From an uncultured Thermoleophilia bacterium (lineage in GTDB: Bacteria > Actinomycetota > Thermoleophilia > UBA2241), in assembly GCA_963765635.1 (NCBI GenBank), contig CAVXXF010000002.1, positions 210,363-274,362 on the forward strand: 64,000 nt of DNA. Reading direction: 5' to 3'. The number at the start of each line of letters is the position of its first letter. The stretch's first letter is position 1. Positions 9,474 to 25,038 of this stretch are shown piece after piece. The notes under the pieces are model-generated. The model was given only the letters and a program-made list of their open reading frames with translations. It made no database searches and was not told the origin of the DNA. Position numbers and translations under genes: made by a program.

Positions 9474-9782
9474 ATGCAGGAAGTGCTCGACGAGCTGGTG
9501 AGGCGCATCGTCGCGGAGGTCGGCCCGCGGCGCGTCGTGTTATTCGGGTCGGCGGCGCGCGGCGACGCGCGGCCGGGCAGCGACATCGATCTCCTCATCG
9601 TGATGCCGGACGGCGCGCATCGCCGTCGGACTGCCCAGCATCTTTACGGGCGCCTGGGCAGCGACCGCCCCCCGGTCGACCTTCTCGTGGCCACCGAGTC
9701 CGACATCCTTGACCACGGCGACGAGCCAGGCTACGTCTACCTTACGGCACTACGCGAGGGGCGCGAGCACTACGCGGCCTGA
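9474..9782 (+). CDS. Nucleotidyltransferase-domain protein (MNT-like), second copy
   Basis: MQEVLDELVRRIVAEVGPRRVVLFGSAARGDARPGSDIDLLIVMPDG...VDLLVATESD. The G[SG]xARG and DxD signature of minimal NTases. Internal ATG at 9474 chosen over the track start at 9390. Confidence 0.75.
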   Translation: MQEVLDELVRRIVAEVGPRRVVLFGSAARGDARPGSDIDLLIVMPDGAHRRRTAQHLYGRLGSDRPPVDLLVATESDILDHGDEPGYVYLTALREGREHYAA

Positions 9783-10083
9783 GGCCGCCGCGCGCTGGCT
9801 CGCCTATGCCGAGAGCGATCTGGCCGTCGCGCGCGGCGTCGACCGGCCGGGAGTGATCGCCGAGACGCTCTGCTTCCATGCCCAGCAGGCGGCCGAGAAG
9901 GCGATCAAGGTAGTTCTGGTGGCCGCTGGCGTCGACCCTCAGAGGACCCACGATGTCGAGATGCTGCTTGCTGCTGTTCCCGGGGACGTATCGATGGGAT
10001 TCGACCGTCGATCACGCTCGCCTGGCTGTTCATCCTCGTCCCGGGGGCGTTCGCGGCTGGGTCGTCGTATCATGAGACCATGA
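9709..10083 (+). CDS. HEPN-domain protein, partner of the 9474 NTase; C-terminal ~35 aa may be out of frame
   Basis: WLAYAESDLAVARGVDRPGVIAETLCFHAQQAAEKAIKVVLVAAGVDPQRTHDVEMLL is a classic HEPN helix pair. Overlaps the NTase ORF by ~70 nt. The tail RRSRSPGCSSSSRGRSRLGRR looks like wrong-frame sequence. Confidence 0.6.
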   Translation: MTTATSQATSTLRHYARGASTTRPEAAARWLAYAESDLAVARGVDRPGVIAETLCFHAQQAAEKAIKVVLVAAGVDPQRTHDVEMLLAAVPGDVSMGFDRRSRSPGCSSSSRGRSRLGRRIMRP

Positions 10084-10805
10084 GATTCCCCCGCAGCCTG
10101 CTCGTCTTCCTCGCCCTCAGCTGGGTACTGGTGATGCTGTACCCGGATCCCGGCGTCCTGGTGCGGAGCGTGCGCAACACGTTGCGGCCGCGCGTGGAGC
10201 CGCAGGCCGCGGCCGCTCTGGCGCGCACCCTCCCCGACGATCCCCGGGCGATCGAAGCCTACGTGCTCGACCAGCAGGTGCCTTACGCCTACGACTGGCA
10301 GTCGGCCGGCGTGCCGTGGTACTTCCCCACGGCGAGCGAGGCGCTGCGCGCCGGCCGCGGCGACTGTGAGAGCCGCGCTATCGTGCTGGCGAGCCTCCTC
10401 ACGGCCAAGGGCATCCCCAATGAGCTGCGCATGAGCTTTGACCACATCTGGGTCGACTACCCCGGCAAGGTGGCCAACGCCATGGAGAACGCCGCCGTGC
10501 AGTTCGCCGGCCGGCAGGACGGCCGCTTCTTTCTCCACTGGCCGGCTGACTTTCACCTGAGGCAGGAGGTCGCCGACCAGGTGGCGATCCACTGGACGCC
10601 GGCGCCGCGGTGGAGGCTGCTGCTGCTCGCCCTGGGCCTCACCCTCATCCCGCTCTGGAACGTGCTTTCGCGGCGGCTCGCCGGCAGCGAACTCGCGATT
10701 CGAGAGGCGCGCGCCACCGACAGGGCGAAGAGCGCGCCGGGCCGTCTGCGCCGCCGGCACCGGGCGTATTCCGTCGCGGCCGTCTCAACCAGGAAGGTGA
10801 CATGA
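10080..10805 (+). CDS. Transglutaminase-like (Cys-protease core) domain membrane protein
   Basis: N-terminal TM helix. [22 protein letters not shown] matches the transglutaminase-like catalytic Cys motif. C-terminal TM helix. Confidence 0.6.
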
Positions 10806-11845
10806 AGACGATCGACCTGCGCAGCGACACCGTCACGCGTCCGTCGGCGGAGATGCGCCGCGCCATGTTCGAGGCCGAGGTCGGCGACGACGTGCTCGGC
10901 GACGACCCCACGGTGATCCGCCTGCAGGAGCACGCCGCCGGCCTGCTCGGCAAAGAGGCCGGCCTCTACTTCCCGTCGGGGACGATGTGCAACCAGGCGG
11001 CGGTGCGCGCGCTCACGCAGCGCGGCGACGAGGTCTTTCTGCACGCCCAGGCGCACATCATGTTCTACGAGCAGGGCGGGGCCTCGGCGCTGAGCAACGT
11101 GCAGCTGCGCTGCTTCGATTCGCCCGACGGGACGCTCGACCTCGAGAAGATGGAGGAGTACGTCCACACCGACGCCGACGTGCACTGGGCGCCCACCCGG
11201 ATGGTGTGCCTCGAGAACACGCACAACCACTGCGGCGGCCTCGTGCTGCCCCTCGAGCACGTGCGTGCCGTGCGCGAGCTCTGCGACCGGCACGATCTGA
11301 GGATGCACCTCGACGGCGCCCGGCTGTTCAACGCCGTGGCGGCCTCGGGCATCCCTGCCGCGGAGCACGCCGCTCCATTCGACACTGTCAGCATCTGCCT
11401 GTCGAAGGGCCTGGGCGCGCCGGTCGGCTCGATGCTCGTGGGGGACGCCGCCACCATCGCCCTGGCGCAGCGCGCCCGCAAGCTCTACGGCGGCGGCATG
11501 AGGCAGGCCGGCATCATCGCCGCGGCCGGCCTCTACGCGCTTCAGCACAACGTCGTGCGCCTCGCCGACGACCACCGGCGCGCGCGCGAGCTCGCGGAAC
11601 GGCTGGCCGCGCTGCCCGGTCTCGAGATCGACCTGGCCACGGTGCAGACCAACATGATCTTCGCCGGCACGCGGGGCACCGGGCTGCCGGCCGCCGACCT
11701 CGTGGTGCGTCTGGGCGAGGCCGGCGTGCTGTGCCTCGACGAAGGCCCGTGGACCGTGCGCTTCGTCACGCATCTCGATGTGGACGATGCTGACATCGAG
11801 CAGACGGCCGTCGCCGTCGAGCGCGAGCTGGCCGCGAAGGCCTGA
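10802..11845 (+). CDS. ltaE: Low-specificity L-threonine aldolase
   Basis: [38 protein letters not shown]...SGTMCNQAA...[15 protein letters not shown] Lys in the SKGLGAP context. ATGA overlap with the upstream gene. Confidence 0.85.
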
Positions 11846-12145
11846 CGGCCGCGCGGCCAATGCCGAGGTGCTGGCCGGCCTCACGCTGAGCCAGCTCACG
11901 CGGCTTGGGGCGGCGGTGATCTATGGAAGTTCGACCACGGCCATGGACCTGCGTCTGGCCTCCGCTTCGGTGGGCTCACCCGAGTGCGCCCTCATCAGCG
12001 CCGCCGCCGGCCAGATCGCGCGCTTCTACCTCCTGGCCGGTTGGGTGGCGGGTGCGTAGGGCGACGCCTACTGGGCGTGGGCTGACGAGCACGACGCGCA
12101 GCCGCCGGGGCTGCGGCTACGTCCTCAAGCAGCCACTCGCCGCCC

Positions 12146-12661
12146 TCAGAGCCGCAGCGAGAAGAGCACGACGTCCTCGCCGGTTCCGTGCACGTTTCGA
12201 GTCACGGGGACGCCATCCACGAGCTCGTCGCCGTCCTCCAAGGTGAAGCCGAGACGGCGATGAAACGCGATCGAGCGCGTGTTGAAGGCGCCGGTCTCAG
12301 CCACGACGACCGTTGCGCCGCGCCGTCGCACGACGGCCGAGAAGCGCTCGTAGAGCTCTCGCCCCAGGCTGAGGCCGCGGAAGTCGGGATGCACGCCCAT
12401 GAAATGCACGTAAGCCTGTCCGGCATGGCGTTGAGAGAGCATGCCGACCAGGAATGCGACCAACGCCCCGTCGTCTTCGACCACCAGGCAGGTGTCGCCG
12501 AAGTGCTCGAGGAAGAGGGGATGCACGAAATGTCGCAGGTGGCGGGCCCACCAGTCCTCGATCGCGGCGGCGATGGGATCTGCATCGGCCGCTGTGGCCG
12601 ACCGCCAGAGCAGGCCGTCGTGGCCTGACTGGCCCCCCGTCTGGATCGCTGCGCACATGGC
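12146..12661 (-). CDS. GNAT-family N-acetyltransferase
   Basis: Acetyl-CoA-binding segment VHPDFRGLSLGRELYERF and overall GNAT fold pattern. Internal ATG (MCAAIQTG...) preferred over the track's longer low-complexity N-terminus. Confidence 0.7.
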   Translation of the reverse strand, partial: AMCAAIQTGGQSGHDGLLWRSATAADADPIAAAIEDWWARHLRHFVHPLFLEHFGDTCLVVEDDGALVAFLVGMLSQRHAGQAYVHFMGVHPDFRGLSLGRELYERFSAVVRRRGATVVVAETGAFNTRSIAFHRRLGFTLEDGDELVDGVPVTRNVHGTGEDVVLFSLRL

Positions 12662-12968
12662 ACTCCTCACTGACCTCACAGTTCTAGCACAAACCACCGA
12701 GGTCGCGAATCCTGTCGGTGGGTCCATCGCGGGTGTCGAGGCGGACGTGCCCTCACTGTCGTACATTCGGCGTCCCCGAGCAGGGCTGGGAGTGTGCACT
12801 CCACTCGCCGATGGGGAGTGGTGTTGCCCGCAGAGGCTCCCGAAACCTCTGGCAAGTACCGGTGAGAACCTGAGTAGAGTTTTATTCGTCAGGAGCATGT
12901 CCGGTCAGTAAGTTGACAGTCAGGACATACGCCAGCTAGCATGCGGCCATCCGACTCAGGGGGACGAC

Positions 12969-13442
12969 GTGGACGCTCTCGACCGTCAGATACTCATCGC
13001 GTTGCAGCAGGACGGGAGCCTCACCAACGCCAGGCTGGCGCAGGCGCTCGGACTCTCGCAGTCGGCCATGTCCGAGCGCGTCAGGCGCCTCGAGCAGGAC
13101 GGCCACATCGCCGGCTATCGCGCCTTGGTCAACCCCACCAGTCTCGGGCTCGGCCTGCAGGCGTTCGTGGCCGCCGAGCTCGACCATCACAGCACCGAGA
13201 GCATCGAGTCCTTCGAGCACGGGGTCGTGAAGCTCCAGGCGGTGCGCGCCTGCTACCACGTGGCCGGCCGCTTCGACTACCTGCTCCACGTGGCCGTGCG
13301 CGACCTGGAGCACCTGGGTCATCTCATCAAGTACGACATCGCCGCGATCCCTGGAGTCGACAAGGTCGAGACCATGCTCGTGTACTCGGAGGTGAAGCCC
13401 GACGTGGGCTGGCCCGTTCATCCCGAGGGCCGGGAAGAGTGA
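12969..13442 (+). CDS. Lrp/AsnC-family transcriptional regulator
   Basis: 157 aa. N-terminal HTH (MDALDRQILIALQQDGSLTNARLAQALGLSQSAMSERVRRLEQDGHIAGYRA) plus C-terminal RAM/AsnC_C domain. Confidence 0.9.
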   Translation: MDALDRQILIALQQDGSLTNARLAQALGLSQSAMSERVRRLEQDGHIAGYRALVNPTSLGLGLQAFVAAELDHHSTESIESFEHGVVKLQAVRACYHVAGRFDYLLHVAVRDLEHLGHLIKYDIAAIPGVDKVETMLVYSEVKPDVGWPVHPEGREE

Positions 13443-13478
13443 GCGCCGCCGGCGCTGAGCCGGCGCAACTGCAGGACC

Positions 13479-14777
13479 ATGGAGGCAGGAGGACCGATGA
13501 CCACCCGAGACGCGATGCGCGCGCAGCTGCGCATCAAGCCCGCCGACCTGGAGGCCGTGAACGCGGTCCTCGCGGGCCCCGACAACGCTCTCGTGGACGG
13601 CCTCCTCGAGCTTGTCGAGAAGTACGGCGGCGTGGCGGAGATCAACCGCCGGGCCGACGAGGCGGGCCGCCTCGAGACCCGCCTTGCGCGCCTGCAGGAC
13701 GAGGCCTCCCCCTTCCTCTCCGGCCTCCACTGGCTCGCCGAGCAGCGCGACGCAGGCGCCTTCGTCTCGCTGCCCGAGTACCGGCGCAGCGTCCTCGGCC
13801 CTGAGGCCGACGCCATGACCGTCGACGAGCGCAACGCCGTGACCCTCGAGATCAGCGCCCTGCAGTACTTCCCCTGGCTGATCAGCGAGGCCGAGCAAGC
13901 CATCGAGCGCCGCGAGCTCATGCCGGGCCGCTACATCCGCGTGCGCACCATGGCCGAGCAGTGCGCCCCCGGCGAGGACGTCCTCGCCGTGGCCGCCGCC
14001 ATGCAGATCATCGGCGCCACGCACGTCGAGACCCTCGACACCAAGGGCATCGATGGCAGCAACGTCCACCTCGGCGGCCCCGCCACGATCACCGGCTACT
14101 TCGGCGGCATCGGCCAGCCCAACGACTACCCGCTCAAGTGGGCCGACGAGTACCTCGGCGTGCTCACGCAGTACGGAATCCGCCAGGTGCTCAACATCAA
14201 CAGCGGCACCATCCTCGTGGCCCTCCTGATGCACAAGCTGGGTATACGCAACGAGTTCAAAGTCTCGGTTTTCATGGGCGTCGACAACCCTTGGTCGGTG
14301 CTCTGGCTCCTGATTGGCGCCCGCCTGCTGGCGGCCGACGACGGCTCGACCAGCATGATCGGCCTCAATCTCTCCAACTCTGTCGAGTTGCCCACCCTGC
14401 TCGCCGCCGCCGAAGTGCGCCGCGGCCTGGGCTTTGACGGCGGCGTGCGTCTCGAGCACCACGTCACCGAGACCTGGAAGTCTATCGTGCGCCAGCCCTA
14501 CGACCGCCGCGGGGACGTGGTCGCCGCCGCGGCCACCGTGCCCAACATCTCCGCCAAGCACGAGGGCGGCGACCCGGAGACCGAGACGACCCGCGAGCAC
14601 CCCACCGACATCCTCGACTACTTCATCCCCAAGGAGCAGGTCATCGCCGACGGCCTCATGCCGCTGCTGGAACAGAACTACCTCGACAAGCACGCCGCCG
14701 TGAACCACACGGCCGCGGACCTCACCCGCGCCGGCATCGGAGTGCGCGCAGCCGCCCTGCTCCACGCACCGGCCTGA
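13479..14777 (+). CDS. Conserved hypothetical protein (432 aa), unknown function; sits between the Lrp regulator and the MttB-family gene
   Basis: Clean protein-like ORF with few Cys. No motif I can assign. The family was not identified. Confidence 0.55.
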   Translation: MEAGGPMTTRDAMRAQLRIKPADLEAVNAVLAGPDNALVDGLLELVEKYGGVAEINRRADEAGRLETRLARLQDEASPFLSGLHWLAEQRDAGAFVSLPEYRRSVLGPEADAMTVDERNAVTLEISALQYFPWLISEAEQAIERRELMPGRYIRVRTMAEQCAPGEDVLAVAAAMQIIGATHVETLDTKGIDGSNVHLGGPATITGYFGGIGQPNDYPLKWADEYLGVLTQYGIRQVLNINSGTILVALLMHKLGIRNEFKVSVFMGVDNPWSVLWLLIGARLLAADDGSTSMIGLNLSNSVELPTLLAAAEVRRGLGFDGGVRLEHHVTETWKSIVRQPYDRRGDVVAAAATVPNISAKHEGGDPETETTREHPTDILDYFIPKEQVIADGLMPLLEQNYLDKHAAVNHTAADLTRAGIGVRAAALLHAPA

Positions 14778-14873
14778 GGTTTCCCCCAGCGTTGCTGCCG
14801 CTCGAGGGGCGCAGAGGATGTATCATGACCCCCCCTGGGGCCGGAACCTGCCCGGCTGTCGACTACCTGAAGA

Positions 14874-16331
14874 GTGAAGGACAGTCTCGTGGACTGGAGT
14901 CTCACCTGCACGACCCCCGCCGAGCGGGACCTCGTGATCGAATCCGCCCTGGCGGTGCTCGAGCGCGTGGGTATGCGCATGATGGGGGCGACGCGCGCGC
15001 TCGACGCGCTGGCGAGCCTCGGCGCCGGGGTCGACGTGGCGACGGGGGTCGTGCGCCTGCCGCCGGAGATGGTGCACGCGGCCCTGGCCACGCTCCCGGA
15101 CCAGCTGTTCATCGCGGGCGCGGTCCCCGCGCGAGATGTCGTCCTCGACCGGCACAGCGGCCCCTTCTTCAATCCCTCGGGGTGTCACGCCAAGACCCTC
15201 GACTTCCGCACGGGGCGGCTGCGCCCGTCCAGCATCCAGGATCTCCGCGAGGGTACCGTCGTCATGGACGCCACCCCGGAGATCGACGTGATGTGGACGT
15301 TCGTGACGGCCAACGACGTGCCCCTCGAGCGGCGTGAGCTGGTGGAGTGCTACACGTATCTCGCGAACACCTCCAAGCCGCTGGTGCTCGTCGACTGCCC
15401 GACGGATGCCACCGACGTGCGGCGCATCATGGATGTCCTCGGCGGCGGCCTGGAGGGCTTCCGCCGCCGCCCGCGCCTCGGCGTGCTCTGCGCGGCGCGT
15501 GCGCCGCTCGCGGTCAACGGCGCCCTGCTGGACGTCACCTGCGAGCTGGCCGCTCTCGGCAGCCCCGTCTGGGCCTACTCGATGGCCATGGCGGGGGCGA
15601 CCGGTCCCATCACGGTCGCCGGCATGCTGAGCCTGATGTGGGCCGAGATCCTCGGCCTCGTCACGGCGGTCCAGGCGGTCGCCCCCGGCGCGGCCGTCCT
15701 GGCCTGTTGCGGCCCGGGGATCCTCGACATGCGCACCGGCAACATGTCCCTCGGCAGCCCCGAAAACACGCTCATGGGCGTTGCCTCGGTCGAGATCGGC
15801 CACCATCTGGGGTTGCCGGTCCACAACTCCGCCCTGTCGACGGACGCCCAGCATCCCGGCGTACAGGCCGGGTACGAGAAGGGCATGAAGGTCCTTCCCG
15901 CGGTGCTGGCGGGCGTCGATCTCATCAGCGGGGGTTTCGGCGCCCTGGCCTCGTCGAGCGTATGGCATCTGCCCATGGTGCCCATCGACGCCGAGGTGGC
16001 GGCTCTCGTGCGGCGCCTCGCCGCGGGAAGCCCCATACGCCCGGAGGACGTGATGCTCGACATCATCGAGCGCGTGGGGGTCGGCGGCAGCTATCTCAAG
16101 GAGCGGGTCACCCGCGAGCGCGTGCGCGCCCTCGAGCACTTCACGCCCACGATCGGCAGCCGGCTGCCGATCGAGCAGTGGGTCGCCGCGGGCAAGCAGG
16201 AGGTCGACGTGGCGCGCGAACGCGTGGAGCAGACCCTGGCCGCAGCGCCGGCCCGGGAGGGCGCCGCGGCGCTCATGGGGGAAGAGCAGTTGCGCGCGCT
16301 CGCCGACGTGTGCGGCGTCGGGGTCAGTTGA
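14874..16331 (+). CDS. MttB-superfamily (COG5598, trimethylamine methyltransferase-like) protein, non-pyrrolysine type; presumed quaternary-amine:corrinoid methyltransferase
   Basis: 485 aa. Family-typical length and TIM-barrel-like sequence pattern (LERVGMRM...LPDQLFIAGA...NTLMGVASVEIGHHLGLPVH...LISGGFGALASS). No in-frame amber codon. No corrinoid-protein gene (DxHxxG) seen nearby. Confidence 0.75.
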   Translation: MKDSLVDWSLTCTTPAERDLVIESALAVLERVGMRMMGATRALDALASLGAGVDVATGVVRLPPEMVHAALATLPDQLFIAGAVPARDVVLDRHSGPFFNPSGCHAKTLDFRTGRLRPSSIQDLREGTVVMDATPEIDVMWTFVTANDVPLERRELVECYTYLANTSKPLVLVDCPTDATDVRRIMDVLGGGLEGFRRRPRLGVLCAARAPLAVNGALLDVTCELAALGSPVWAYSMAMAGATGPITVAGMLSLMWAEILGLVTAVQAVAPGAAVLACCGPGILDMRTGNMSLGSPENTLMGVASVEIGHHLGLPVHNSALSTDAQHPGVQAGYEKGMKVLPAVLAGVDLISGGFGALASSSVWHLPMVPIDAEVAALVRRLAAGSPIRPEDVMLDIIERVGVGGSYLKERVTRERVRALEHFTPTIGSRLPIEQWVAAGKQEVDVARERVEQTLAAAPAREGAAALMGEEQLRALADVCGVGVS

Positions 16332-16392
16332 CGCGCGAGCGCTGACCCCTAGCGTTCCACCCAGGAGGACATCAGACCGAGAGGGAGGACCC

Positions 16393-17766
16393 ATGGCAGA
16401 TCTGCCGGAGACGCGTGAACACGAGGCGCTCGAGGAGGATTTCCTCGGCCACCTCTGGCCGCCGTTCACGCAGATGCAGGGCCTCAAGCCCGTGATCATG
16501 GACCACGCCGAGGGCGCGCTCGTCTACGACGCCGCCGGCAAGGCCTACATCGATGCCTTCGCCAGCCTGTGGACCGTCAACGTCGGCCACGGCCGCCAGG
16601 AGATCTTCGACGCCATCGCAGAGCAAGCGCAGAAGCTGGCGATCTACCACATCTTCCAGATCGCCAACGAGCCCTCCATCAAGCTCGCCGCCAAGGTCGC
16701 GGAGCACATGCCCGGCGACCTCAACCACGTCTTCTTCACACTCGGCGGCGGCGAGTCCGTGGAGACCGCCGTCAAGATGGCGCGCCAGTACTGGCGCAAC
16801 AAGGGCATGGGCACCAAGTACATGATCATGTTCCGCGACCGCTCCTACCACGGCACCACGATGACCAGCACGAGCGCCCAGGGCCTCTCCATGAACCGCG
16901 CCAAGTTCGAGCCCCTGCTGCCCGGGTTCATCAAGCTCGGCGCGCCCTACTGCTACCGCTGCTTCTGGGGCAAGACCTACGGCGAGGACTGCAAGATGGA
17001 GTGCGCCCGGCAGGTCGAGCAGGAGATCGCCTTCTACGGTCCCGAGAACGTTGGCACCATGCTCGGCGAGACGATGATCGGCACCGGCGGCGTGATCCCC
17101 CCGCCGCCCGAGTACTGGCCGATGGTCAACGAGATCTGCAAGGCGAGCGACGTGCTCGTGATCAACGACGAGGTGATCACCGGCTTCGGCCGCGCCGGCA
17201 CCTGGTTCGGCTTCGAGCAGTTCGGTTCCGACCCCGACCTCATCACCCTCGCCAAGGGCCTCTCTTCCGGCTACCTGCCGCTCGGCGCCGTGGGCGCCCG
17301 CGACCACGTCTTCGAGGCCTTCCTCGGCGACCCCGGCAGGACCTTCATGAGCGGCGCCACCTACAACGGGCACCCGCTCTGCTCGGCGGCCGGCATCGCC
17401 AACCTCGAGATCATCGAGCGCGAGCACCTCGTGGAGCGCTGCGCCGAGCTGGGCCCCTACCTCCAGGACGGCCTCGCGACGCTACTTGCGCACCCCATCG
17501 TCGGCGACGTGCGCGGCGTGGGCCTCGTGGCCGGGGTCGAGTTCGTCAAGGACAAGGAGACGCGCGAGTGGTTCGCCGCGGCACAGGGCGTGGCCGCCAA
17601 GGTCCGCGACGAGGCCTTCGCCCGCGGCGTCTTCGTACGCCTCCTCGGCGGCGGCCACGTGCTTGCCGTGGCGCCGCCGTTCATCATCAGCAAAGCGCAG
17701 ATCGACACTGTCGTGGCCGTCCTCGACGAAGCCATCGCCGTCGTCGAGCAGGAGCTCGGTCACTAG
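16393..17766 (+). CDS. Class-III PLP aminotransferase (omega-amino acid / GABA:pyruvate transaminase-like)
   Basis: 457 aa. Class-III signatures (VINDEVITGFGRAGTWFGFEQFG; GLSSGYLPLGAV). Complete. Confidence 0.85.
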   Translation: MADLPETREHEALEEDFLGHLWPPFTQMQGLKPVIMDHAEGALVYDAAGKAYIDAFASLWTVNVGHGRQEIFDAIAEQAQKLAIYHIFQIANEPSIKLAAKVAEHMPGDLNHVFFTLGGGESVETAVKMARQYWRNKGMGTKYMIMFRDRSYHGTTMTSTSAQGLSMNRAKFEPLLPGFIKLGAPYCYRCFWGKTYGEDCKMECARQVEQEIAFYGPENVGTMLGETMIGTGGVIPPPPEYWPMVNEICKASDVLVINDEVITGFGRAGTWFGFEQFGSDPDLITLAKGLSSGYLPLGAVGARDHVFEAFLGDPGRTFMSGATYNGHPLCSAAGIANLEIIEREHLVERCAELGPYLQDGLATLLAHPIVGDVRGVGLVAGVEFVKDKETREWFAAAQGVAAKVRDEAFARGVFVRLLGGGHVLAVAPPFIISKAQIDTVVAVLDEAIAVVEQELGH

Positions 17767-17846
17767 CGTAGGTACCGGCTGCGTACGCAGAAGAGGGCGG
17801 GCGGGGTGACCGTTCTGGTCGCCCCGCCCGCCCTCTTCGTGCGCGT

Positions 17847-19073
17847 CTACTTCTTGACGGGAGCCTTCTTGGCCGGCGCCTTCTTCTCCTTGACCGGCTC
17901 GGTCCCCGGCTTGACGGCCATGTTGCGGTAGACCTGCTCCATGTCCTCGGCAGTGAACTTGCGCGGGTTGTTGTTCCACAGGCGGGCCTGCGTAAGGGCG
18001 CCCTTGACGAGGTCGGGGATCGCCGACTCGGGGATGCCCACCTCGTTGAGGTACTGCGGCACCTCGAGGTCCTCGGCCAGCGTGCGCAGGGCCTGCAGCG
18101 TGACCTCGCAACCCTCGCGATCGCTGAGGCCTTCCATGTTCTCGCCCATGAACTCGCCGATCTCGCGGAAGAACTGCGGGCAGGCGAGCATGTTGTACTC
18201 CATGACCCACGGCAGCATGAGCGTGTTGGCGATGCCGTGCGGCACATGGAACATGCCGCCCACGGGGTAGCTCATGGCGTGCACGGCGCCCACACCGGCG
18301 TTGCCGAAGGAGATGCCGCCGAGCAGCGAGCCGATGGCCATGTTGTGGCGCGCCCAGGCGTTGCTGCCGTCGAACACCGCCGTGCGGATGCTCTTGCTGA
18401 CGAGCTTGATGCCTTCAGCGGCGAGCGGGTCGGTGTGCATCGTGGCGTTCACCGAGATGTAGGCCTCGATGTTGTGGATCAGGGCGTCCATGCCGCTGGC
18501 GGCGGTGACGCCCGCCGGGCAGCTGTAGGTGAGCACGGGGTCGACGAGAGCGATGTTGGGGATGAGGTGCGGGCTCACGACGCCCTGCTTCACGTTCAGC
18601 TTCTCGTTGCTGAAGATGGCGATGGCCGTGACTTCGGTGCCGGTGCCGGCGGTGGTGGGCACGGCGATGAAGGGCAGACCCTTGTGGGGTACCTGGTCGA
18701 TACCGACGTAGTCCTCGAGACGGTCGTCGTTGGGCGCGAGCACGGCGACCACCTTGGCGACATCGATGGCCGAGCCGCCGCCGAAGCCGACGATGAGGTC
18801 GTACTTGCCTTCTTTGGCGATATCGACGATCTCGTGCACGCTGCCCATGGGCGGCTCGGGGACGGCCTTGTCGTAGATGCCGACGTCCATGCCCGCCTCG
18901 CGCAGCGGGGCCTCCACGCTTTCCACGGTGCCGCAGCAGGCCACGCCGGGGTCGGTGATGATGAGCACCTTCTTGGCGTGCAGCTTCTTGGCCTCGGCGC
19001 CGATCTGGGCGACGCAGCCGTTGCCTGTGATTAGCGTCTTGGGCGCTCTGTGCACGCGGATCTTGGTATCCAT
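17847..19073 (-). CDS. Iron-containing (group III) alcohol dehydrogenase, contextually a 4-hydroxybutyrate dehydrogenase; unusual Lys/Ala/Pro-rich C-terminal tail
   Basis: 408 aa. GGGS nucleotide motif (GFGGGSAIDVAK) and Fe-binding His cluster (GAVHAMSYPVGGMFHVPHG). Tail ...KPGTEPVKEKKAPAKKAPVKK. Confidence 0.8.
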   Translation of the reverse strand: MDTKIRVHRAPKTLITGNGCVAQIGAEAKKLHAKKVLIITDPGVACCGTVESVEAPLREAGMDVGIYDKAVPEPPMGSVHEIVDIAKEGKYDLIVGFGGGSAIDVAKVVAVLAPNDDRLEDYVGIDQVPHKGLPFIAVPTTAGTGTEVTAIAIFSNEKLNVKQGVVSPHLIPNIALVDPVLTYSCPAGVTAASGMDALIHNIEAYISVNATMHTDPLAAEGIKLVSKSIRTAVFDGSNAWARHNMAIGSLLGGISFGNAGVGAVHAMSYPVGGMFHVPHGIANTLMLPWVMEYNMLACPQFFREIGEFMGENMEGLSDREGCEVTLQALRTLAEDLEVPQYLNEVGIPESAIPDLVKGALTQARLWNNNPRKFTAEDMEQVYRNMAVKPGTEPVKEKKAPAKKAPVKK

Positions 19074-19098
19074 GACTTCTTTCTCCTCCGTTGGACGG

Positions 19099-20409
19099 CT
19101 AGCGCGCGAGGCGGCCGGGGCCGTAGACGCCGGCCGCCTCCTCGCGGATCTGGTCTCTGAATGCTGGGTCGGCGATCTCGATGAGCGCTTCGGCGCGTTC
19201 GCGCAGGCCCATGCCGCGCAGGTGCGCGACGCCGTGCTCTGTGACGATGTAGTCGACGTCGGCGCGCATGGTGGTCACCGCCGTGCCGGGGCTGAGGGCG
19301 GCGACGATGCGCGACACGGCGCCCTTCTTCGCCGTGGACGGCAAGGCGATGATCGCCTTGCCGTCGCGGCTGCGGGCGGCGCCGCGCACGAAATCGACCT
19401 GCCCGCCGATGCCGGTGAACTGCACGGCGCCCATGGTGTCGGCCACCACCTGACCCTGCAGGTCGACCTGGATCGCCGAGTTGATGGCCACCACGCGGTC
19501 GTTCTGACCGATGAGATACGGGTCGTTGATGATGTTCACGGGGAACATGTTGACGGCGGGGTTGTCGTCGACGAAGTCGTACAGGCGGCGAGTGCCCATG
19601 AGGAAGGTCGCCGCCATCTTGTCGCGGTTGATGGTCTTGTTGCGGTTGGTGATGACGCCCTCGTTGTAGAGGTCGACGACGCCCTCGCTGAACATCTCGC
19701 TGTGGATGCCGAGGTCGTTCTTCTCGTGCAGAAAGAGGAGCACCGCGTCGGGGATGCCGCCGATGCCGAGCTGCAGGCAGGAGCCGTCCTCCACGAGGCC
19801 GGCGATGTGCTTGCCGATGGCCTCCTCGACGGGGCCGATGCGCGGCGGCTGCAGTTCGATGATCGCCTGCTCGCTCTCGACGACGAAGTCGATCTCGCTG
19901 ACATGGATGAACGAATCGCCGTGGGTGCGCGGCATGTTGGGGTTCACTTGGGCGACGACGGTCTTGGCGACCTGGGCGGCCGGCTTCGTGTAGTCCACCG
20001 AGACGCCGAAGGAGCAGAAGCCGTGCTTGTCGGGCGGCGACACATGGATGAGCACCACGTCGGGCGGCAGGTAGCCCTCGCAGAACAGCTTGGGGATCTC
20101 GTGGAAGAACACCGGGATGTAGTCGCCGCGCCCGTCCTTGACCGCCTCCCGCGAGGAGGCGCCGACGAACAGCGACTTGTGGAAGAAGGAGTCGGCGAAC
20201 TCGGGCTGGCAGTACTCGCCCTTGCCCATGGCGACCATGTGGTTGATCTCGACGCGCTCCAGATCGGCGGCCCGCGCCACGAGCGCGTCGACCAGCTCGA
20301 GGGGTTCGCCGCAGGCGTGCGCGAACACCACGCGGTCGCCCGACTTCACGCAGTCCATCGCCACGGCGGGGGAGACCCGTTTGCGATCGTAGTCCGACTT
20401 CCACTCCAT
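19099..20409 (-). CDS. abfT: 4-hydroxybutyrate CoA-transferase (acetyl-CoA hydrolase/transferase family)
   Basis: Start taken at internal MEWKSDYDRKRVSPAVAMDC. The track ORF has a Ser/Pro-rich extension. Family pattern throughout (GIGGIPDAV...; ...TEHGVAHLRG). Confidence 0.8.
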   Translation of the reverse strand: MEWKSDYDRKRVSPAVAMDCVKSGDRVVFAHACGEPLELVDALVARAADLERVEINHMVAMGKGEYCQPEFADSFFHKSLFVGASSREAVKDGRGDYIPVFFHEIPKLFCEGYLPPDVVLIHVSPPDKHGFCSFGVSVDYTKPAAQVAKTVVAQVNPNMPRTHGDSFIHVSEIDFVVESEQAIIELQPPRIGPVEEAIGKHIAGLVEDGSCLQLGIGGIPDAVLLFLHEKNDLGIHSEMFSEGVVDLYNEGVITNRNKTINRDKMAATFLMGTRRLYDFVDDNPAVNMFPVNIINDPYLIGQNDRVVAINSAIQVDLQGQVVADTMGAVQFTGIGGQVDFVRGAARSRDGKAIIALPSTAKKGAVSRIVAALSPGTAVTTMRADVDYIVTEHGVAHLRGMGLRERAEALIEIADPAFRDQIREEAAGVYGPGRLAR

Positions 20410-20413
20410 GCGC

Positions 20414-20671
20414 TTACTCCTTGAGCTTTCGCGTGACCGTGGGCGCGAGCTCGGCGGCCGGCGTGGGGACGCCGTCGACGAGCTCGCCGGCGACGACCAC
20501 GGTACCGGGGTCGTCGCTGACGAGCAGGTGGTCTGAGGCGCAGGCGCGAGGGCAGCCATTGACGTGCACGGTGACTCCCGGATCTACACCAGGGTCCTCG
20601 GCGAGCAGTTCGCCGGCCACGGCGGTACGGTCGATGTGGGGGTTGCAGCCCCCGCAGTACACGACCTTCAC
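20414..20671 (-). CDS. Small 85-aa four-cysteine protein (CxxC...CxxxC), thioredoxin-like or metal-binding; translationally coupled to abfD
   Basis: Own translation: MKVVYCGGCNPHIDRTAVAGELLAEDPGVDPGVTVHVNGCPRACASDHLLVSDDPGTVVVAGELVDGVPTPAAELAPTVTRKLKE. The GTG start overlaps the abfD TGA (GTGA). Stop is 4 nt before the abfT ATG. In the track this DNA is hidden inside the junk ORF 20414..21364. Confidence 0.55.
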   Translation of the reverse strand: MKVVYCGGCNPHIDRTAVAGELLAEDPGVDPGVTVHVNGCPRACASDHLLVSDDPGTVVVAGELVDGVPTPAAELAPTVTRKLKE

Positions 20672-22167
20672 GCGTCGGCTACCGCCGTGGGGGCCTTGAC
20701 CTTGCCCTTGTCCCACGGTTTGCCCACGCCGGCCAGCGCCTTGGCCAGATCCTTCTTGTGATCGATGTTGGACTGGCGCGCGATCATGATGCGCTGCGCC
20801 TGCGGTGAGCCCGCGCCGTGCATGCTCTCGGTGCGGTAGCCGACGGCCGCGGTGCCCAGCGTGAGGTTTTCGACGAGGCGCAGGATGCGCATGCGGTCGA
20901 TGGTCGGCGTGTCGCACTGCCCCACGAGATACTTCTCGACGATGGGGCCGAGCTTTTCGTCGGCGAGGTCGTGAGCCGACGGCATGGTGACCATGAGGCC
21001 GCCGGCGATGTCCTCGGCGAGGCGCGCGATCTCGTAGGGGAAGCGCGTGACGTTCTGCTTGCACACGTTGGCCAGCAGCATGTCGATCTGGAAGTTGCCG
21101 GCCGGCATCTTGACGCCCTCGTAGGAGCAGGCGAGCCCGCACGAGAACAAGGTCTCGTTGAGATGCGTCATCTCGATGAGCTTGTCCTTGATGTGGCTGG
21201 CCCTGGCGGCGCCGTTCATGTCGGCGGCTGTGGCGGCGGCGCCGATGAGCACGTCGCCGACGCCGACCTTGCAGCCGCCGTAGCTCTGGCGGTGGAAGCC
21301 GGCGAAGCGCTCGACGAGCGCTCCGGAGAACTCGATCTCGCCGCACAGGTACACCCTGTCCCACGGCACGAACACGTCGTCGAACACCATCAGTGCCTCT
21401 TGCCCGCCGAACTGGGCGTTGCCCACGTCGAGGTCGTTGCCCTCGAGCTTGCGCGTGTCGCAGCTCTGGCGGCCGTAGATGTAGTACACGCCCTCGGCGT
21501 TGGCCGGGCAGCTGAAGCTCACGGCGTAGTCCTCGTCGCCTTCGCGCATGGCGACCGTGGGCATGACGATGATCTCGTGAGAGTTGCAGGCGCCCGTCTG
21601 GTGCGCCTTGGCGCCGCGCACCACGATGCCGTCATCGCGCTTGTCGACGATGTGCAGGTACATGTCGGGGTCGGGCTGCTGGTGGGGCGCCAGGCCGCGA
21701 TCCCCCTTGGGATCGGTCATGGCGCCGTCGGCCACGAGGTCGTTGTCCTGCAGGTACTGGACGTACTTCTTGAAGCGCTCGTGGTACTGCGTGCCTCGCG
21801 CCTTGTCCGTCTCGTAGGTCACGGAGTACAGGGCGTTGATGGCATCCATGCCCACGCAGCGCTGGAAGCACGAGCCTGTCTTCTGGCCCAGCAGGCGCTG
21901 CATCTTGACCTTCTTGCTGAGGTCGTCGGTGGACTGGTGGATGTGGGTGAAGCGGTTGACCTTCTTGCCCGTGAGGTGGCTGGTGGCCAGCATGAGGTCT
22001 TCGTACTCGGGCAGAGCCGCCAGCTCGTAGGTCATGGCGATGCAGTTGATGCTGGGGCGGATCACGGGGTGGTCCACGTAGTCGTCGATCTGCTCGCCGA
22101 ACATGTAGATCTTCAGGTGCAGGTCGGCGATGCTCTGGCGGAACTCCTCGGGCGTCTTGAGAGCCAT
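20668..22167 (-). CDS. abfD: 4-hydroxybutyryl-CoA dehydratase / vinylacetyl-CoA delta-isomerase
   Basis: 500 aa from MALKTPEEFRQSIADLHLKIYMFGEQIDDYVDHPV.... Characteristic Cys/His [4Fe-4S]-FAD enzyme pattern (CFQRCVGMD; HQTGACNSHE; C..C). Confidence 0.85.
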   Translation of the reverse strand: MALKTPEEFRQSIADLHLKIYMFGEQIDDYVDHPVIRPSINCIAMTYELAALPEYEDLMLATSHLTGKKVNRFTHIHQSTDDLSKKVKMQRLLGQKTGSCFQRCVGMDAINALYSVTYETDKARGTQYHERFKKYVQYLQDNDLVADGAMTDPKGDRGLAPHQQPDPDMYLHIVDKRDDGIVVRGAKAHQTGACNSHEIIVMPTVAMREGDEDYAVSFSCPANAEGVYYIYGRQSCDTRKLEGNDLDVGNAQFGGQEALMVFDDVFVPWDRVYLCGEIEFSGALVERFAGFHRQSYGGCKVGVGDVLIGAAATAADMNGAARASHIKDKLIEMTHLNETLFSCGLACSYEGVKMPAGNFQIDMLLANVCKQNVTRFPYEIARLAEDIAGGLMVTMPSAHDLADEKLGPIVEKYLVGQCDTPTIDRMRILRLVENLTLGTAAVGYRTESMHGAGSPQAQRIMIARQSNIDHKKDLAKALAGVGKPWDKGKVKAPTAVADA

Positions 22168-22419
22168 CGGACAACTCCTCACGGGCGAGCGCGCGCTCTC
22201 GCGGGGCGCGCGCGGTGGCTAGCGGTGCGGTACTTCTGACTATAGAAGCGAGGCTGGGCTTCGTCAATTATCGCTAAAGACCAGCCAATCAGTGGCATCC
22301 AACTTGGACATTCCGTACAAGAACTGACGCTGCCCGAAGGTCCGCCGGGGGGTGGAGCGGGCCGCCTGCGGCCGCCGCCCCCGCCGGCACGTTTCGCCAA
22401 GGTGTACCAATTGGACTAG

Positions 22420-22548: not shown

Positions 22549-23910
22549 ATGAGCACATTCGTCGACGAGTATATGGCCTGGCTGAAGGCCAAGAACCCTG
22601 CTGAGCCCGAGTTCCATCAGGCAGCGATGGAGGTCGCGGAGTCCCTCGAGGTCGTCCTCGACAGGCACCCGGTCTATCGCGAGAAGAAGATCCTCGAGCG
22701 CATCTCCGAGCCCGAGCGCGTCATCCTGTTCCGCGTGCCCTGGATCGACGACAAGGGCGAGGTCCAGCTCAACCGCGGCTTCCGCATCGAGATGAACAGC
22801 GCCATCGGCCCCTACAAGGGCGGCATGCGCTTCCACCCCACCGTGTACCTCGGCCTCCTCAAGTTCCTCGCCTTCGAACAGGTGTTCAAGAACTCTCTGA
22901 CCACGTTGCCCATGGGCGGCGGCAAGGGCGGCTCCGACTTCGATCCCAAGGGTAAGAGCGACAACGAGGTCATGCGCTTCTGCCAGAGCCTCATGACCGA
23001 GCTGTGCCGGCACATCGGCCAGTTCACCGACGTGCCCGCCGGCGACATCGGCGTGGGCGGCCGTGAGATCGGCTTCATGTTCGGCCAGTACAAGCGCGTG
23101 CGCAATGAGTTCGTCGGCGTGCTCACCGGCAAGGGTCTGAACTGGGGCGGTTCCCTGATCCGCCCGGAGGCCACGGGCTACGGCGCCGTGTACTTCGCCG
23201 CCGAGATGCTCGCCACGCGCGGCGAGACCCTTGAGGGCAAGACCTGCCTCGTCAGCGGCTCCGGCAACGTGTCGCAGTACGCCATGGAGAAGATCCTCGA
23301 CCTCGGCGGCAAGCCGGTCACCTGCTCCGACTCGGGCGGCTACATCTACGACGAGGCCGGCATCGATCGCGAGAAGCTCGCCTTCGTGCTCGAGCTCAAG
23401 AACGTCAAGCGCGGCCGCATCAGCGAGTACGCCGACAAGTTCCCGGGCGCCGTGTACACGCCCGTCGACAAGGCCAAGGACCACAACCCGCTGTGGGCCC
23501 ACAAGGCAGACTGCGCCTTCCCCTGCGCCACGCAGAACGAGATCAACGCCAAGGACGCCCAGAACCTGGTCGACAATGGCGTGTACCTGATCAGCGAGGG
23601 CGCCAACATGCCGACGGTGCCCGAGGGCGTCAACCTCTTCGTTGAGAAGAAGCTCCTCTACGGCCCCGGCAAGGCCGCCAACGCCGGCGGCGTGGCCACC
23701 TCGGGCCTCGAGATGAGCCAGAACAGCCTGCGCCTCGCCTGGACGCGTGAAGAAGTGGACGCGCGCCTGCACGGCATCATGAAGGCCATCCACAAGCAGT
23801 GCATCGACGCCTCCGCCGCCTACGGCTTCGAGGGCAACTACGTGGCGGGCGCCAACATCGCCGGCTTCCTCAAGGTCGCCGACTCGATGCTCGACCAGGG
23901 CGTCGTCTGA
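22549..23910 (+). CDS. gdhA: NADP-specific glutamate dehydrogenase
   Basis: MSTFVDEYMAWLKAKNPAEPEFHQA...KGGMRFHP...GGGKGGSDFDPKGKS. Hexameric GDH signature including the catalytic Lys region. Confidence 0.9.
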   Translation: MSTFVDEYMAWLKAKNPAEPEFHQAAMEVAESLEVVLDRHPVYREKKILERISEPERVILFRVPWIDDKGEVQLNRGFRIEMNSAIGPYKGGMRFHPTVYLGLLKFLAFEQVFKNSLTTLPMGGGKGGSDFDPKGKSDNEVMRFCQSLMTELCRHIGQFTDVPAGDIGVGGREIGFMFGQYKRVRNEFVGVLTGKGLNWGGSLIRPEATGYGAVYFAAEMLATRGETLEGKTCLVSGSGNVSQYAMEKILDLGGKPVTCSDSGGYIYDEAGIDREKLAFVLELKNVKRGRISEYADKFPGAVYTPVDKAKDHNPLWAHKADCAFPCATQNEINAKDAQNLVDNGVYLISEGANMPTVPEGVNLFVEKKLLYGPGKAANAGGVATSGLEMSQNSLRLAWTREEVDARLHGIMKAIHKQCIDASAAYGFEGNYVAGANIAGFLKVADSMLDQGVV

Positions 23911-23940: not shown

Positions 23941-24282
23941 ATGAAAAAGATCGAGTGCTTCATTCAGCCCTACAACCTCGACACCGTCGCCGAGGCGCTG
24001 GCCGTCGAGGGCGTGCTCGGCATGTCCGTCGGCGAGGTCAAGGGCTTCGGCGTGCAGAAGGGCTTCACGCGCGGCGAGGACGTCAAGGCGCACGAGTACC
24101 GCTTCCACCCCAAGATGAAGGTCGAGATGGTCGTGCTCGAGAGGGACGTCGAGCGCATCGTGGCGGCCATCACCAAGTCGCTGAAGAGCAACCAGATCGG
24201 CGAGGGCAAGATCTTCGTGCTGCCGATCGACGACGCCGTGCGCACGCGCACCGGCGAGCGCGGTCGCGACGCTATCAAGTAG
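23941..24282 (+). CDS. P-II (GlnB/GlnK)-family nitrogen regulatory protein, divergent
   Basis: 113 aa. MKKIECFIQPYNLDTVAEALAVEGVLGMSVGEVKGFGVQKG...GKIFVLPIDDAVRTRTGERG. P-II fold with T-loop region. Confidence 0.75.
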   Translation: MKKIECFIQPYNLDTVAEALAVEGVLGMSVGEVKGFGVQKGFTRGEDVKAHEYRFHPKMKVEMVVLERDVERIVAAITKSLKSNQIGEGKIFVLPIDDAVRTRTGERGRDAIK

Positions 24283-24327
24283 CACGCCTGACTGCGGCTG
24301 CGGCCGCAGGCGCGACGAGTACACGAG

Positions 24328-24372
24328 GGGCCCGGCGCCGTTTCAGCGGCCGGGCCTCTCGGCTTTTCTGTC
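24328..24372 (+). terminator. Intrinsic terminator after the gdhA-P-II operon
   Basis: Stem ggcccggc / gccgggcc with an 11-nt loop, followed by tctcggcttttctg. Confidence 0.55.
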
Positions 24373-25038
24373 ACGCGCGCGAGAGCGGCGGCTGCGCCGC
24401 GCTCCCTCGCTTCGCGGGGGCGTCACGGGGCTGCCCCTGGGCTCGCTGTAGGGTCTGCGGCTTCAGCCCGCCGTCACTGCTGCCGATGATGGGAGCAGTC
24501 CTGAGGGGCTCCGCTGCGCTCCGCCCCGGGATATGAAGGTTTCGGGAGTTTCGTGTTGCACCGCTAACGGGCACACGGTAGAGTGCCCCACAACGGACGT
24601 GCCCGGACGGGCGTCCGACGGCGTGTAGGAGGCTACGAAGAGGGAGGTGGGTGCTTCTGCCGGAGAAGGAAAGTCGTGGCTCGCGTTGTAGAGAGACACC
24701 TGACCGAGTCTATCTGGAGGTCGTTCGACCTTGAGGGTCCCCAAAATCAGAAGCGCACAACTCGCGGCTCCGGTCCTCGCTGGACTCCCACGCCGCGGTC
24801 GTTATAGAGTGTGTAGTTGTGTGGAGTAAGCAGCACAGGGGGCGTTGTGTTCGTTCGTGCAGCGACGAGCAGAACGCGAAAGCGGGTCAGTGCATGGCCC
24901 CGACTCAGGCGGGTAGGGCTCTGCAAGCAAGCCTTGGAGGTGGTCGTGTCGTGAAAAAAATATGCGTCCCCGTGGGTGCATCATCCCACGTCAATTTGGC
25001 TGAAAGCCATCGTAGTGAACCACTCAGGAGGTCGTAAC

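Follow-up and report, generated by a model that had tools for sequence, protein, structure and literature searches.

A 64-kb stretch of DNA from an uncultured Thermoleophilia bacterium (Actinomycetota; contig CAVXXF010000002.1, positions 210,363 to 274,362), hereafter called the window, carries a 9.2-kb region in which four plus-strand genes face a minus-strand operon (abf) for the conversion of 4-hydroxybutyrate to crotonyl-CoA. All positions follow the numbering of the whole window; WIN denotes the window locus, and L-numbers denote the loci of relatives. In a first-pass annotation, a transcription regulator, a 432-amino acid (aa) protein, an MttB-family methyltransferase, an aminotransferase, and the abf operon had been read as parts of one catabolic pathway. 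Our analysis of gene neighborhoods shows separate conserved partners for these components and makes it probable that the region is instead a mosaic, wherein a stable abf operon lies beside a variable plus-strand segment holding a remnant gene set.

All eight genes annotated earlier for the region are in place, with small corrections to their coordinates, and have Pfam, NCBIfam, or PDB sequence matches, with the exception of the 432-aa protein, which has none. The GC content of the window is high (0.64–0.72), and GC at the third codon position picks out one clear gene for each stretch of sequence. The genes and other features of the region are as follows.

12969–13442, plus strand: lrp, Lrp/AsnC-family transcription regulator (PF01037, PF13404, PF13412)
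13479–14777, plus strand: 432-aa protein (no Pfam, NCBIfam, or PDB sequence match)
14874–16331, plus strand: MttB-A, non-pyrrolysine MttB-superfamily protein (PF06253, E 6e-63)
16393–17766, plus strand: class-III aminotransferase, omega-amino-acid:pyruvate type (PF00202, E 4e-88)
17847–19073, minus strand: group-III iron-containing alcohol dehydrogenase (Fe-ADH; PF00465, PF25137)
19099–20409, minus strand: AbfT/Cat2-type 4-hydroxybutyrate CoA-transferase (PDB 3eh7, 3gk7)
20414–20671, minus strand: 85-aa four-Cys protein, AF_0334 family (PF27236 on homologs)
20668–22167, minus strand: AbfD, 4-hydroxybutyryl-CoA dehydratase/vinylacetyl-CoA isomerase (PDB 1u8v)
22549–23910, plus strand: gdhA, glutamate dehydrogenase, NADP-type by family (NF006929)
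23941–24282, plus strand: P-II nitrogen regulatory protein, GlnB/GlnK type (PF00543, E 3e-23)
11859–12068, plus strand: relic of a pyrrolysine (Pyl)-type mttB gene, ~70 codons (tblastn versus L004)
12146–12898, minus strand: GNAT acetyltransferase (PF00583, E 1.5e-16)
12913–12942, plus strand: promoter-like site TTGACA-18-TAGCAT, 5′ of lrp (consensus scan, 10/12; pattern match only)
22239–22267, minus strand: promoter-like site TTGACG-17-TATAGT, 5′ of abfD (consensus scan, 10/12; pattern match only)
17786–17843, no strand: hairpin between the convergent aminotransferase and ADH genes (RNA fold)

The four plus-strand genes (lrp, the 432-aa gene, mttB-A, and the aminotransferase gene) are separated by gaps of 36–96 bp, and no terminator is predicted between them. 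The hairpin beyond the last of these genes comprises ~26 bp with almost perfect pairing (−63 kcal/mol, z = −8.4, none of 200 shuffles equally stable) and is likely to act as a bidirectional terminator for the aminotransferase and ADH genes.

The abf operon and its conserved neighbors

The minus-strand genes form the tightly coupled operon that had been described for them. The small four-Cys open reading frame (ORF) starts with a GTG that overlaps the abfD stop (GTGA) and is translationally coupled to abfD, and the next two gaps measure 4 nt and 25 nt. AbfD starts at an ATG with a GAGGAG ribosome-binding site and has 499 aa, the length seen in relatives, and AbfT has 436 aa, shorter than its 486-aa maximal ORF. 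The AbfD assignment is borne out by a match to the 4-hydroxybutyryl-CoA dehydratase of Clostridium aminobutyricum (PDB 1U8V; E 4e-231 over residues 8–486, ~70% identity), and the [4Fe–4S] ligands Cys99, Cys103, His292, and Cys299 lie in SCFQRC and FHRQSYGGC motifs that are identical to those of 1U8V. The AbfT assignment holds equally, with the Porphyromonas gingivalis enzyme 3EH7 as the best PDB match (1.6e-150), followed by Clostridium aminobutyricum AbfT (3gk7, 3.9e-143) and 9vag (1.6e-135). The identities of AbfD and AbfT and the tight organization of the operon are thus strongly supported by the sequences.

For the Fe-ADH, which had been described as 4-hydroxybutyrate dehydrogenase-like, the assignment to the iron-containing ADH family stands (PF00465, PF25137), whereas no equivalog cut-off for the dehydrogenase itself is reached. 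The protein scores 258 bits against the 4-hydroxybutyrate dehydrogenase model NF058672 (cut-off 500) and higher against the ErcA, lactaldehyde reductase, and sulfoacetaldehyde reductase models, all below the respective equivalog cut-offs. Judged by operon context only, the Fe-ADH would be a succinic semialdehyde reductase/4-hydroxybutyrate dehydrogenase. In WIN, L124, L166, L168, L169, and L170, its gene closes the abf operon; the gene is fragmented in L004 and is not called in L167 or L129.

The small protein carries the four cysteines ascribed to it in a CGGC...GCPRAC pattern, of which C9, C40, and C44 occur without exception in 35 homologs and C6 in at least 90% of them. Precomputed annotation places PF27236 (the AF_0334 family) on all 120 homologs listed, one of which is 95% identical, and a local Pfam scan of the window protein gave no match. 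The gene always lies between abfD and abfT in L166–L170. An AlphaFold2 model of the protein (pLDDT 47) is unusable. Binding of a metal or an Fe–S cluster, or a part in the maturation or activation of AbfD, are guesses at its role. Relatives of the protein carry variable low-complexity insertions, up to ~60 residues long, between the conserved blocks.

We compared abf loci, given as ten, of which WIN, L004, L124, L129, L166, L167, L168, L169, and L170 are named here; L166–L170 were recovered by anchoring on the small four-Cys protein. Two conserved neighbors of the operon, gdhA (NF006929, 738 bits; cut-off 536) and the P-II gene, were absent from the earlier gene list. In the window, gdhA diverges from abfD across an intergenic region of 381 bp, and it likewise diverges from and adjoins abfD in L004, L124, L129, L166, L167, L168, and L169. 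In L170, the gene 5′ of abfD is truncated by the end of the contig and lacks a Pfam call. In every abf locus for which that flank was recovered, gdhA is kept beside the abf operon. The P-II gene after gdhA is kept in L004 and L166–L169. That abf, gdhA, and P-II form a conserved unit is strongly supported by these loci, and GdhA may recycle 2-oxoglutarate and glutamate as in classical GABA (4-aminobutyrate) fermentation.

The other flank of the operon is far less constant. L166 is arranged as the window is, and in L167 and L168 the abf operon is convergent on larA, pgk, gap, the aminotransferase gene, a gene for a second MttB paralog (MttB-B), and ABC transporter genes. In the most distant loci, L169 and L170, whose small proteins are 68% and 59% identical to that of the window, the operon directly abuts a Beta_elim_lyase gene and a ~230-aa gene; no Lrp, 432-aa homolog, MttB, or class-III aminotransferase is encoded within 7–10 kb of the abf operon. 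The Beta_elim_lyase gene corresponds to the threonine-aldolase-like gene at 10.9–11.8 kb of the window.

The operon can be compared with two known systems. As in the GABA fermentation of C. aminobutyricum (GABA aminotransferase, NAD-dependent glutamate dehydrogenase, AbfH, AbfT, and AbfD), the window encodes AbfD, AbfT, and an Fe-ADH in the AbfH position, with a glutamate dehydrogenase and an aminotransferase alongside. It differs in its high-GC Thermoleophilia (Actinomycetota) host, in an additional four-Cys gene of the AF_0334 family that separates abfD from abfT, in a glutamate dehydrogenase that is NADP-type by family, and in an aminotransferase that is of the omega-amino-acid:pyruvate type rather than GabT and is not a conserved neighbor. 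With the succinate route of Clostridium kluyveri and P. gingivalis (SucD, 4HbD, Cat2, and AbfD) it shares the three downstream enzymes, but neither SucD (CoA-dependent succinate-semialdehyde dehydrogenase) nor Cat1 is encoded in the window. Of the C. aminobutyricum GABA-to-crotonyl-CoA route that had been proposed for the region, the gene content therefore stands (abfD, abfT, Fe-ADH, class-III aminotransferase, and gdh), whereas the GabT type and a conserved linkage of the aminotransferase do not.

In a 2014 survey (PMC3994512), the 4-aminobutyrate/succinate pathway was limited to Firmicutes, Fusobacteria, Spirochaetaceae, and Bacteroidetes. The abf operon is a new taxonomic occurrence of this known 4-aminobutyrate/succinate-to-crotonyl-CoA module and is mechanistically not new; its additions to the module are the AF_0334-family Cys protein and the conserved gdhA–P-II partner. 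It extends a fermentative pathway from four other phyla to Actinomycetota, here uncultured soil and sediment Thermoleophilia, and points to an anaerobic, amino acid-fermenting lifestyle for this group.

The variable plus-strand segment and its genes

The nucleotide alignment of the window with L169 ends at position 11858 and restarts at 17819, inside the hairpin loop. Because the alignment breaks at these points, and because the operon abuts the Beta_elim_lyase gene in L169 and L170, we regard 11859–17818 as a segment that varies by insertion or deletion. The variable nature of the plus-strand block is strongly supported by these comparisons. With the Pyl-mttB relic at its left edge and the hairpin loop at its right, the segment contains the relic, the minus-strand GNAT gene (shared with L004 and L166 but not with L169 or L170), and the plus-strand lrp, 432-aa gene, mttB-A, and aminotransferase gene.

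The 210-bp relic is 91% identical by tblastn to residues 262–331 of an intact, TAG-containing mttB in L004, and it keeps the in-frame TAG (12057–12059), with a translation, ...WVAGA*GDA, that is the Pyl motif. At the same place L004 has the intact Pyl-mttB plus a TetR gene. The fullest version of the slot, the order of which was assembled from L002, L005, and L168, begins with TetR, Pyl-mttB, and FAA hydrolase genes, followed by lrp, panB, and the 432-aa homolog and by a beta-lactamase-family gene. It continues with a hydrolase–BKACE fusion, SDR, thiolase, POR, a second SDR, ACS, and GNAT, and it ends with mttB-A and lrp, then the ABC importer, mttB-B, and the aminotransferase gene, then gap, pgk, and larA.

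Thermoleophilia relatives carry mttB (trimethylamine) and mtbB (dimethylamine) genes with an in-frame TAG exactly at the Pyl position, often behind TetR. Such TAG-bearing methyltransferase genes are located at:

L002, 6220–7686
L004, 5711–7180
L003, 600–1982
L093, L104, L118, and L119 (one or more genes in each locus)

No paper on the use of pyrrolysine by Thermoleophilia came up in a full-text literature search. These Pyl-type genes, with their decayed copy in the window, are a by-product of possibly greater weight than the original claim of one pathway.

The 432-aa protein was said to belong to no known family, and it indeed has no Pfam, NCBIfam, or PDB sequence match and no family-specific fold match. 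Its start is probably M7 at 13497, which would give the 426 aa seen in relatives; an exact-sequence look-up of the 432-aa and 426-aa forms returned no identical entry. A family profile searched against PDB sequences gave nothing meaningful. The AlphaFold2 model (pLDDT 86) has an N-terminal helical domain and a (beta/alpha)8 TIM barrel, and a fold search of this model against the PDB gave generic TIM-barrel matches only, so that the profile and structure searches together point to no described family. Conserved His, Glu, Asp, and Lys residues lie at the C-terminal ends of the barrel strands in the family.

This family is large and compact. It matches at least 8000 clusters at 90% identity in metagenomes, all labeled 'hypothetical', which reduce to 455 representatives at 50% identity, mostly fragments. 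Homologs occur in at least 589 species (one genome per species scanned) at a cross-phylum identity of 60–64%, and the hosts include Thermoleophilia, Desulfobacterales, Anaerolineae, Ardenticatenia, Spirochaetales, Myxococcota, and one Bathyarchaeia metagenome-assembled genome. Neighborhoods were counted at 85 loci (L001–L085). In 49–58 of them, panB lies immediately 5′ of the family gene, with TIGR00222 scores of 299–314 bits (cut-off 207.55), and in the annotated relatives L002 and L003 the panB stop overlaps the start of the family gene. The pairing with panB is seen in Desulfobacterales, Anaerolineae, Spirochaetales, Thermoleophilia, and others; an Lrp gene lies upstream on the same strand in 35 of the 85 loci, and a class-I/II aminotransferase gene often lies 3′. 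MttB genes occur near the family gene within Thermoleophilia only, and an omega-aminotransferase together with abf does so only in WIN and L004, to which the near-identical L166, recovered later, can be added.

The proposal that the 432-aa protein supplies a missing step of a GABA route fails on these counts, since its partners across phyla are panB and Lrp, not MttB or abf. The window Lrp is orthologous to the one encoded ahead of panB and the family gene in relatives; panB itself is absent here, the window genome having lost it from this locus. The association with panB and Lrp strongly supports the 432-aa protein as part of a cross-phylum lrp–panB–432-aa module. This module probably serves a metal-dependent step in 2-oxoacid or pantoate-type chemistry, and our best guess is that the 432-aa protein would be an enzyme that depends on a metal and has as its substrate a 2-oxoacid made or used by PanB. 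Like a member of a panB operon, the family gene stands directly behind an equivalog-level panB. Unlike known panB operons, its conserved neighborhood includes no panC, panD, or panE, with Lrp upstream and often a class-I/II aminotransferase downstream, and the protein resembles no known pantothenate-pathway enzyme. Literature searches on a missing ketopantoate-pathway enzyme and on abf/gabT clusters found nothing directly relevant. Highly conserved, coupled to panB and Lrp, and covered by no Pfam model, the family is a well-defined target for function discovery, and it too may outweigh the original claim of one pathway.

A role of the 432-aa protein as a corrinoid or tetrahydrofolate partner of MttB was considered and rejected, because it has no B12-binding fold, its Foldseek matches to MTHFR-like structures are weak, with a TM score of ~0.3, and its gene follows panB, not MttB. 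In L077 (Clostridiales bacterium PH28_bin88), a 432-aa homolog and panB stand directly after two AbfD-like genes, an SDR gene, and a thiolase gene. The AbfD-like proteins are 59% identical to the window AbfD, and their genes fall in an interval that reaches from ~5.4 kb upstream of the match at 10001–11251 to 1.1 kb beyond its downstream end. L077 is the only one of the 85 loci outside Thermoleophilia with the family near an AbfD homolog.

MttB-A was rightly annotated as a non-Pyl homolog of the MttB superfamily, given that its ORF is uninterrupted, a Ser aligns to the Pyl of Methanosarcina barkeri MttB (7xcl), and the protein has the PF06253 TIM barrel. It scores 286 bits against TIGR02369 (Pyl-type MttB; cut-off 525) and is equally distant from MttB and the glycine-betaine enzyme MtgB (E ~1e-40 each). 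Residues Y97, R312, H348, and F356 of MtgB bind glycine betaine, and R312, and less so H348, is shared by MtcB, MtpB, MthB, and MtyB for the acidic group of the substrate (PMC13080624). The corresponding residues of MttB-A are Cys104, His317, Gly353, and Ser361 in a pairwise alignment of ~30% identity, wherein a local shift is possible. Because the MtgB-type Arg and His are missing, this alignment, with the caveat of its low identity, makes it less likely that MttB-A binds, in the established manner, a carboxylate-bearing substrate of the betaine type. The active-site residues of MttB-A are well supported as non-Pyl and non-MtgB-like.

In sharing the PF06253 TIM barrel and having no Pyl codon, MttB-A resembles MtgB, MtcB, MtyB, MtpB, as well as MthB (enzymes acting with MtqC, MtqA, and RamQ) and the aerobic Ruegeria MtgBCD. 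It differs from these characterized quaternary-amine enzymes in that the MtgB substrate residues are all replaced, including Arg312, the one residue that those enzymes share. As noted earlier for its vicinity, no corrinoid protein or RamA-type activase is encoded nearby: across the 64 kb of the window, neither a corrinoid protein nor a RamA-like activase turned up in Pfam scans of ~60 ORFs, and a tRNA scan gave no tRNA. This absence is uninformative, because the characterized Eubacterium limosum and Ruegeria systems also encode the corrinoid protein and its partners elsewhere than the MttB gene (PMC8604678, PMC12478193); as in the window, the corrinoid protein, second methyltransferase, and activase are not beside it. 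Orthologs of MttB-A at 70–79% identity occur in L003, L005, L022, L091, and L096, and MttB-A forms a lineage-specific clade with MttB-B, the 45–49% identical paralog that precedes the aminotransferase gene in relatives. MttB-A appears to be an orphan methyltransferase paralog. We rejected the idea that it is a chimera of the two paralogs made by deletion, because its level of identity to the 'A' clade does not change from one end to the other.

The aminotransferase had been assigned to a GABA/omega-amino-acid type, of which the omega-amino-acid:pyruvate subgroup is upheld and the GabT subgroup is not. Its best NCBIfam match is PRK07480, and no GabT model is among the best 25 of its 69 matches; in the PDB, it comes closest to omega-transaminases and a putrescine aminotransferase, with the plant GABA:pyruvate enzyme POP2 at E 8e-81. 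The enzyme may still act on GABA. We examined orthologs at 80 metagenomic loci, 79 at 67–97% identity and one outlier at 35%. Their recurrent operon encodes an SBP_bac_5 protein, two permeases, a fused ABC ATPase, MttB-B, and the aminotransferase, then type-II GAPDH, PGK, and a LarA-like protein. An MttB-family gene is directly upstream of the aminotransferase gene in 22 of the 38 loci with enough upstream sequence, and of the seven loci whose downstream sequence extends for 9 kb or more, two have the abf operon there. Together with L169 and L170, where abf occurs with no class-III aminotransferase within the 7–10 kb covered, these counts speak against a conserved linkage of the aminotransferase to abf. 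That an MttB paralog repeatedly accompanies an omega-aminotransferase is a further by-product that may outweigh the original claim.

The operon of an Opp-type importer, MttB-B, and the aminotransferase is found in Thermoleophilia in L086–L164, L167, and L168 (e.g., L097:1–11078 and L168:13011–20297), and its GAPDH is of the archaeal type. A few loci have, after the aminotransferase gene, an aldehyde:ferredoxin-oxidoreductase-like gene (recognized by eye) instead of gap and pgk. We considered GAPDH and PGK as an aldehyde-oxidizing, ATP-yielding module for the aminotransferase product and rejected this. The GAPDH score exceeds by a wide margin the equivalog threshold that marks a bona fide GAPDH, and the PGK matches its Pfam model strongly, so that the two are more likely glycolytic genes in incidental synteny.

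Mosaic and single-pathway interpretations

The mosaic that we favor would work as follows. The stable unit would consist of abfD, the four-Cys gene, abfT, and the Fe-ADH gene, with its own promoter-like site and the strong terminator hairpin, and divergent from gdhA and the P-II gene. The Fe-ADH, judged by its context, would reduce succinic semialdehyde to 4-hydroxybutyrate; AbfT, with strong homology support, would form 4-hydroxybutyryl-CoA; and AbfD, strongly supported and with its Fe–S ligands present, would dehydrate and isomerize this to crotonyl-CoA. The side role of GdhA named above would fit here. The slot between the threonine-aldolase-like gene and the ADH gene would be the variable part, empty in some relatives and filled with a larger amine and amino acid catabolic set in others, of which the window segment would be a compacted remnant. 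Of the segment's products, only the aminotransferase would plausibly feed the abf operon, for which it may provide succinic semialdehyde from GABA. A single new pathway is not supported, because the plus-strand genes lie in a segment that some relatives have and others do not. Many relatives possess the plus-strand genes but no 4-hydroxybutyrate genes, an observation that the first-pass annotation itself had named as refuting its proposal.

Several observations weigh against the mosaic. The aminotransferase gene lies ~0.1–5 kb from the end of the abf operon in WIN, L004, L124, L129, L166, L167, and L168. The window lineage kept this gene and lost gap, pgk, and larA, as would be expected if the aminotransferase serves abf, and the frequent position of MttB directly 5′ of the aminotransferase gene (22/38) hints at a real partnership. 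The four plus-strand genes may also be cotranscribed whatever their history. Furthermore, ancestry and function are inseparable here, because all loci with both the aminotransferase and abf belong to one Thermoleophilia lineage.

The strongest competitor, which we hold to be possible yet clearly less probable than the mosaic, makes the abf operon independent of the aminotransferase. Succinic semialdehyde would then come from succinyl-CoA by a SucD-type enzyme, from 2-oxoglutarate by a decarboxylase fed from glutamate through GdhA, or from a GabT encoded elsewhere, and the aminotransferase, an MttB paralog, and the Opp-type importer would belong to the pathway of another amine. The abf–gdhA–P-II association, the only one kept across all abf loci, fits this well, as do the two loci with no class-III aminotransferase nearby and the aminotransferase orthologs, which mostly have no abf neighbors (2/7, 2/12) and reside in the ABC–MttB-B–aminotransferase operon. 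A pyruvate-type aminotransferase moreover needs no glutamate dehydrogenase, and a succinate-to-4-hydroxybutyrate route is well known in C. kluyveri and Porphyromonas (PMC3994512). Yet no sucD, 2-oxoglutarate decarboxylase gene, or gabT was seen in the 64-kb window, the omega-transaminase family includes GABA:pyruvate transaminases such as POP2, and the aminotransferase gene is always near abf when both occur. Much less probable, and the weakest of the alternatives, is an operon that runs in the reverse or biosynthetic direction, from crotonyl-CoA through 4-hydroxybutyrate to succinic semialdehyde, like the 4-hydroxybutyrate segments of archaeal CO2 fixation backwards, or in butyrate or crotonate oxidation. 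The reactions of AbfD, AbfT, and the Fe-ADH are generally known to be reversible, and the neighboring gdhA is NADP (assimilatory) type by family; however, the gene order and the AbfT type fit the fermentative clostridial and Porphyromonas systems (1e-143 to 1e-150), and no gene for a 4-hydroxybutyrate-CoA synthetase, succinyl-CoA reductase, or carboxylase is nearby in the 64-kb window.

One catabolic island, as originally proposed, would take an N-methylated 4-aminobutyrate (e.g., gamma-butyrobetaine) through demethylation by MttB, a missing step by the 432-aa protein, the aminotransferase, and abf to crotonyl-CoA. We judge this very unlikely, even though the plus-strand genes are adjacent and possibly cotranscribed, the adjacency of MttB-family and aminotransferase genes recurs in relatives, the abf operon is downstream of the aminotransferase gene whenever both are present, and L077 has a 432-aa homolog and panB beside two AbfD-like genes. 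The 432-aa protein has panB and Lrp as partners in at least 49 of 85 loci across phyla and meets MttB, the aminotransferase, and abf only in close relatives; the abf–gdh unit occurs without the plus-strand genes (L169 and L170), as these do without abf in others. MttB-A has His and Gly in place of the carboxylate-binding Arg312 and His348. Known MttB-family enzymes also take one methyl group off a quaternary amine and leave a tertiary amine, which an aminotransferase cannot use (PMC8604678); the two remaining methyl groups would also have to be removed, and candidate enzymes for this are absent.

The narrower link between MttB and GABA is likewise weak and unsupported, MttB-A being without the carboxylate-binding Arg and His of MtgB, MtcB, MtyB, and MtpB, and we think it improbable. 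We attach a similarly small likelihood to a scheme in which a non-Pyl MttB and the aminotransferase that follows it would demethylate and then transaminate an imported N-methylated omega-amino compound; in genomes with abf, the resulting aldehyde would be succinic semialdehyde, fermented via 4-hydroxybutyrate to crotonyl-CoA. If true, this would mean a new substrate class for the MttB superfamily, with secondary or primary-amine precursors instead of betaines, and a new entry into the 4-hydroxybutyrate pathway.

Other features of the window

An M-box (Mg2+) riboswitch (2536–2705, minus strand, 150 bits) lies upstream of a gene with MgtE-N, CBS, and PRC domains (1200–2492) and an Nramp transporter gene (3–1190). 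A HepT-like ribonuclease gene and an MNT-type nucleotidyltransferase gene lie close together (8194–8577 and 9390–9782) as a toxin–antitoxin-like pair, between which a 260-aa ORF with no Pfam match occupies the opposite strand. Beyond the P-II gene, the interval 24300–31200 has a lower GC content (0.64–0.66) and few convincing ORFs until ~27.9 kb, after which two proteins of ~530 aa with TIG and Big_13 Ig-like domains are encoded; L168 and L169 have similar Ig-domain genes beyond P-II. At 32279–33892, two ORFs look like a split or decayed ABC exporter gene, one of 302 aa with an ABC_membrane match and a short one of 170 aa whose ABC_tran match covers the ATPase domain in its C-terminal part only.

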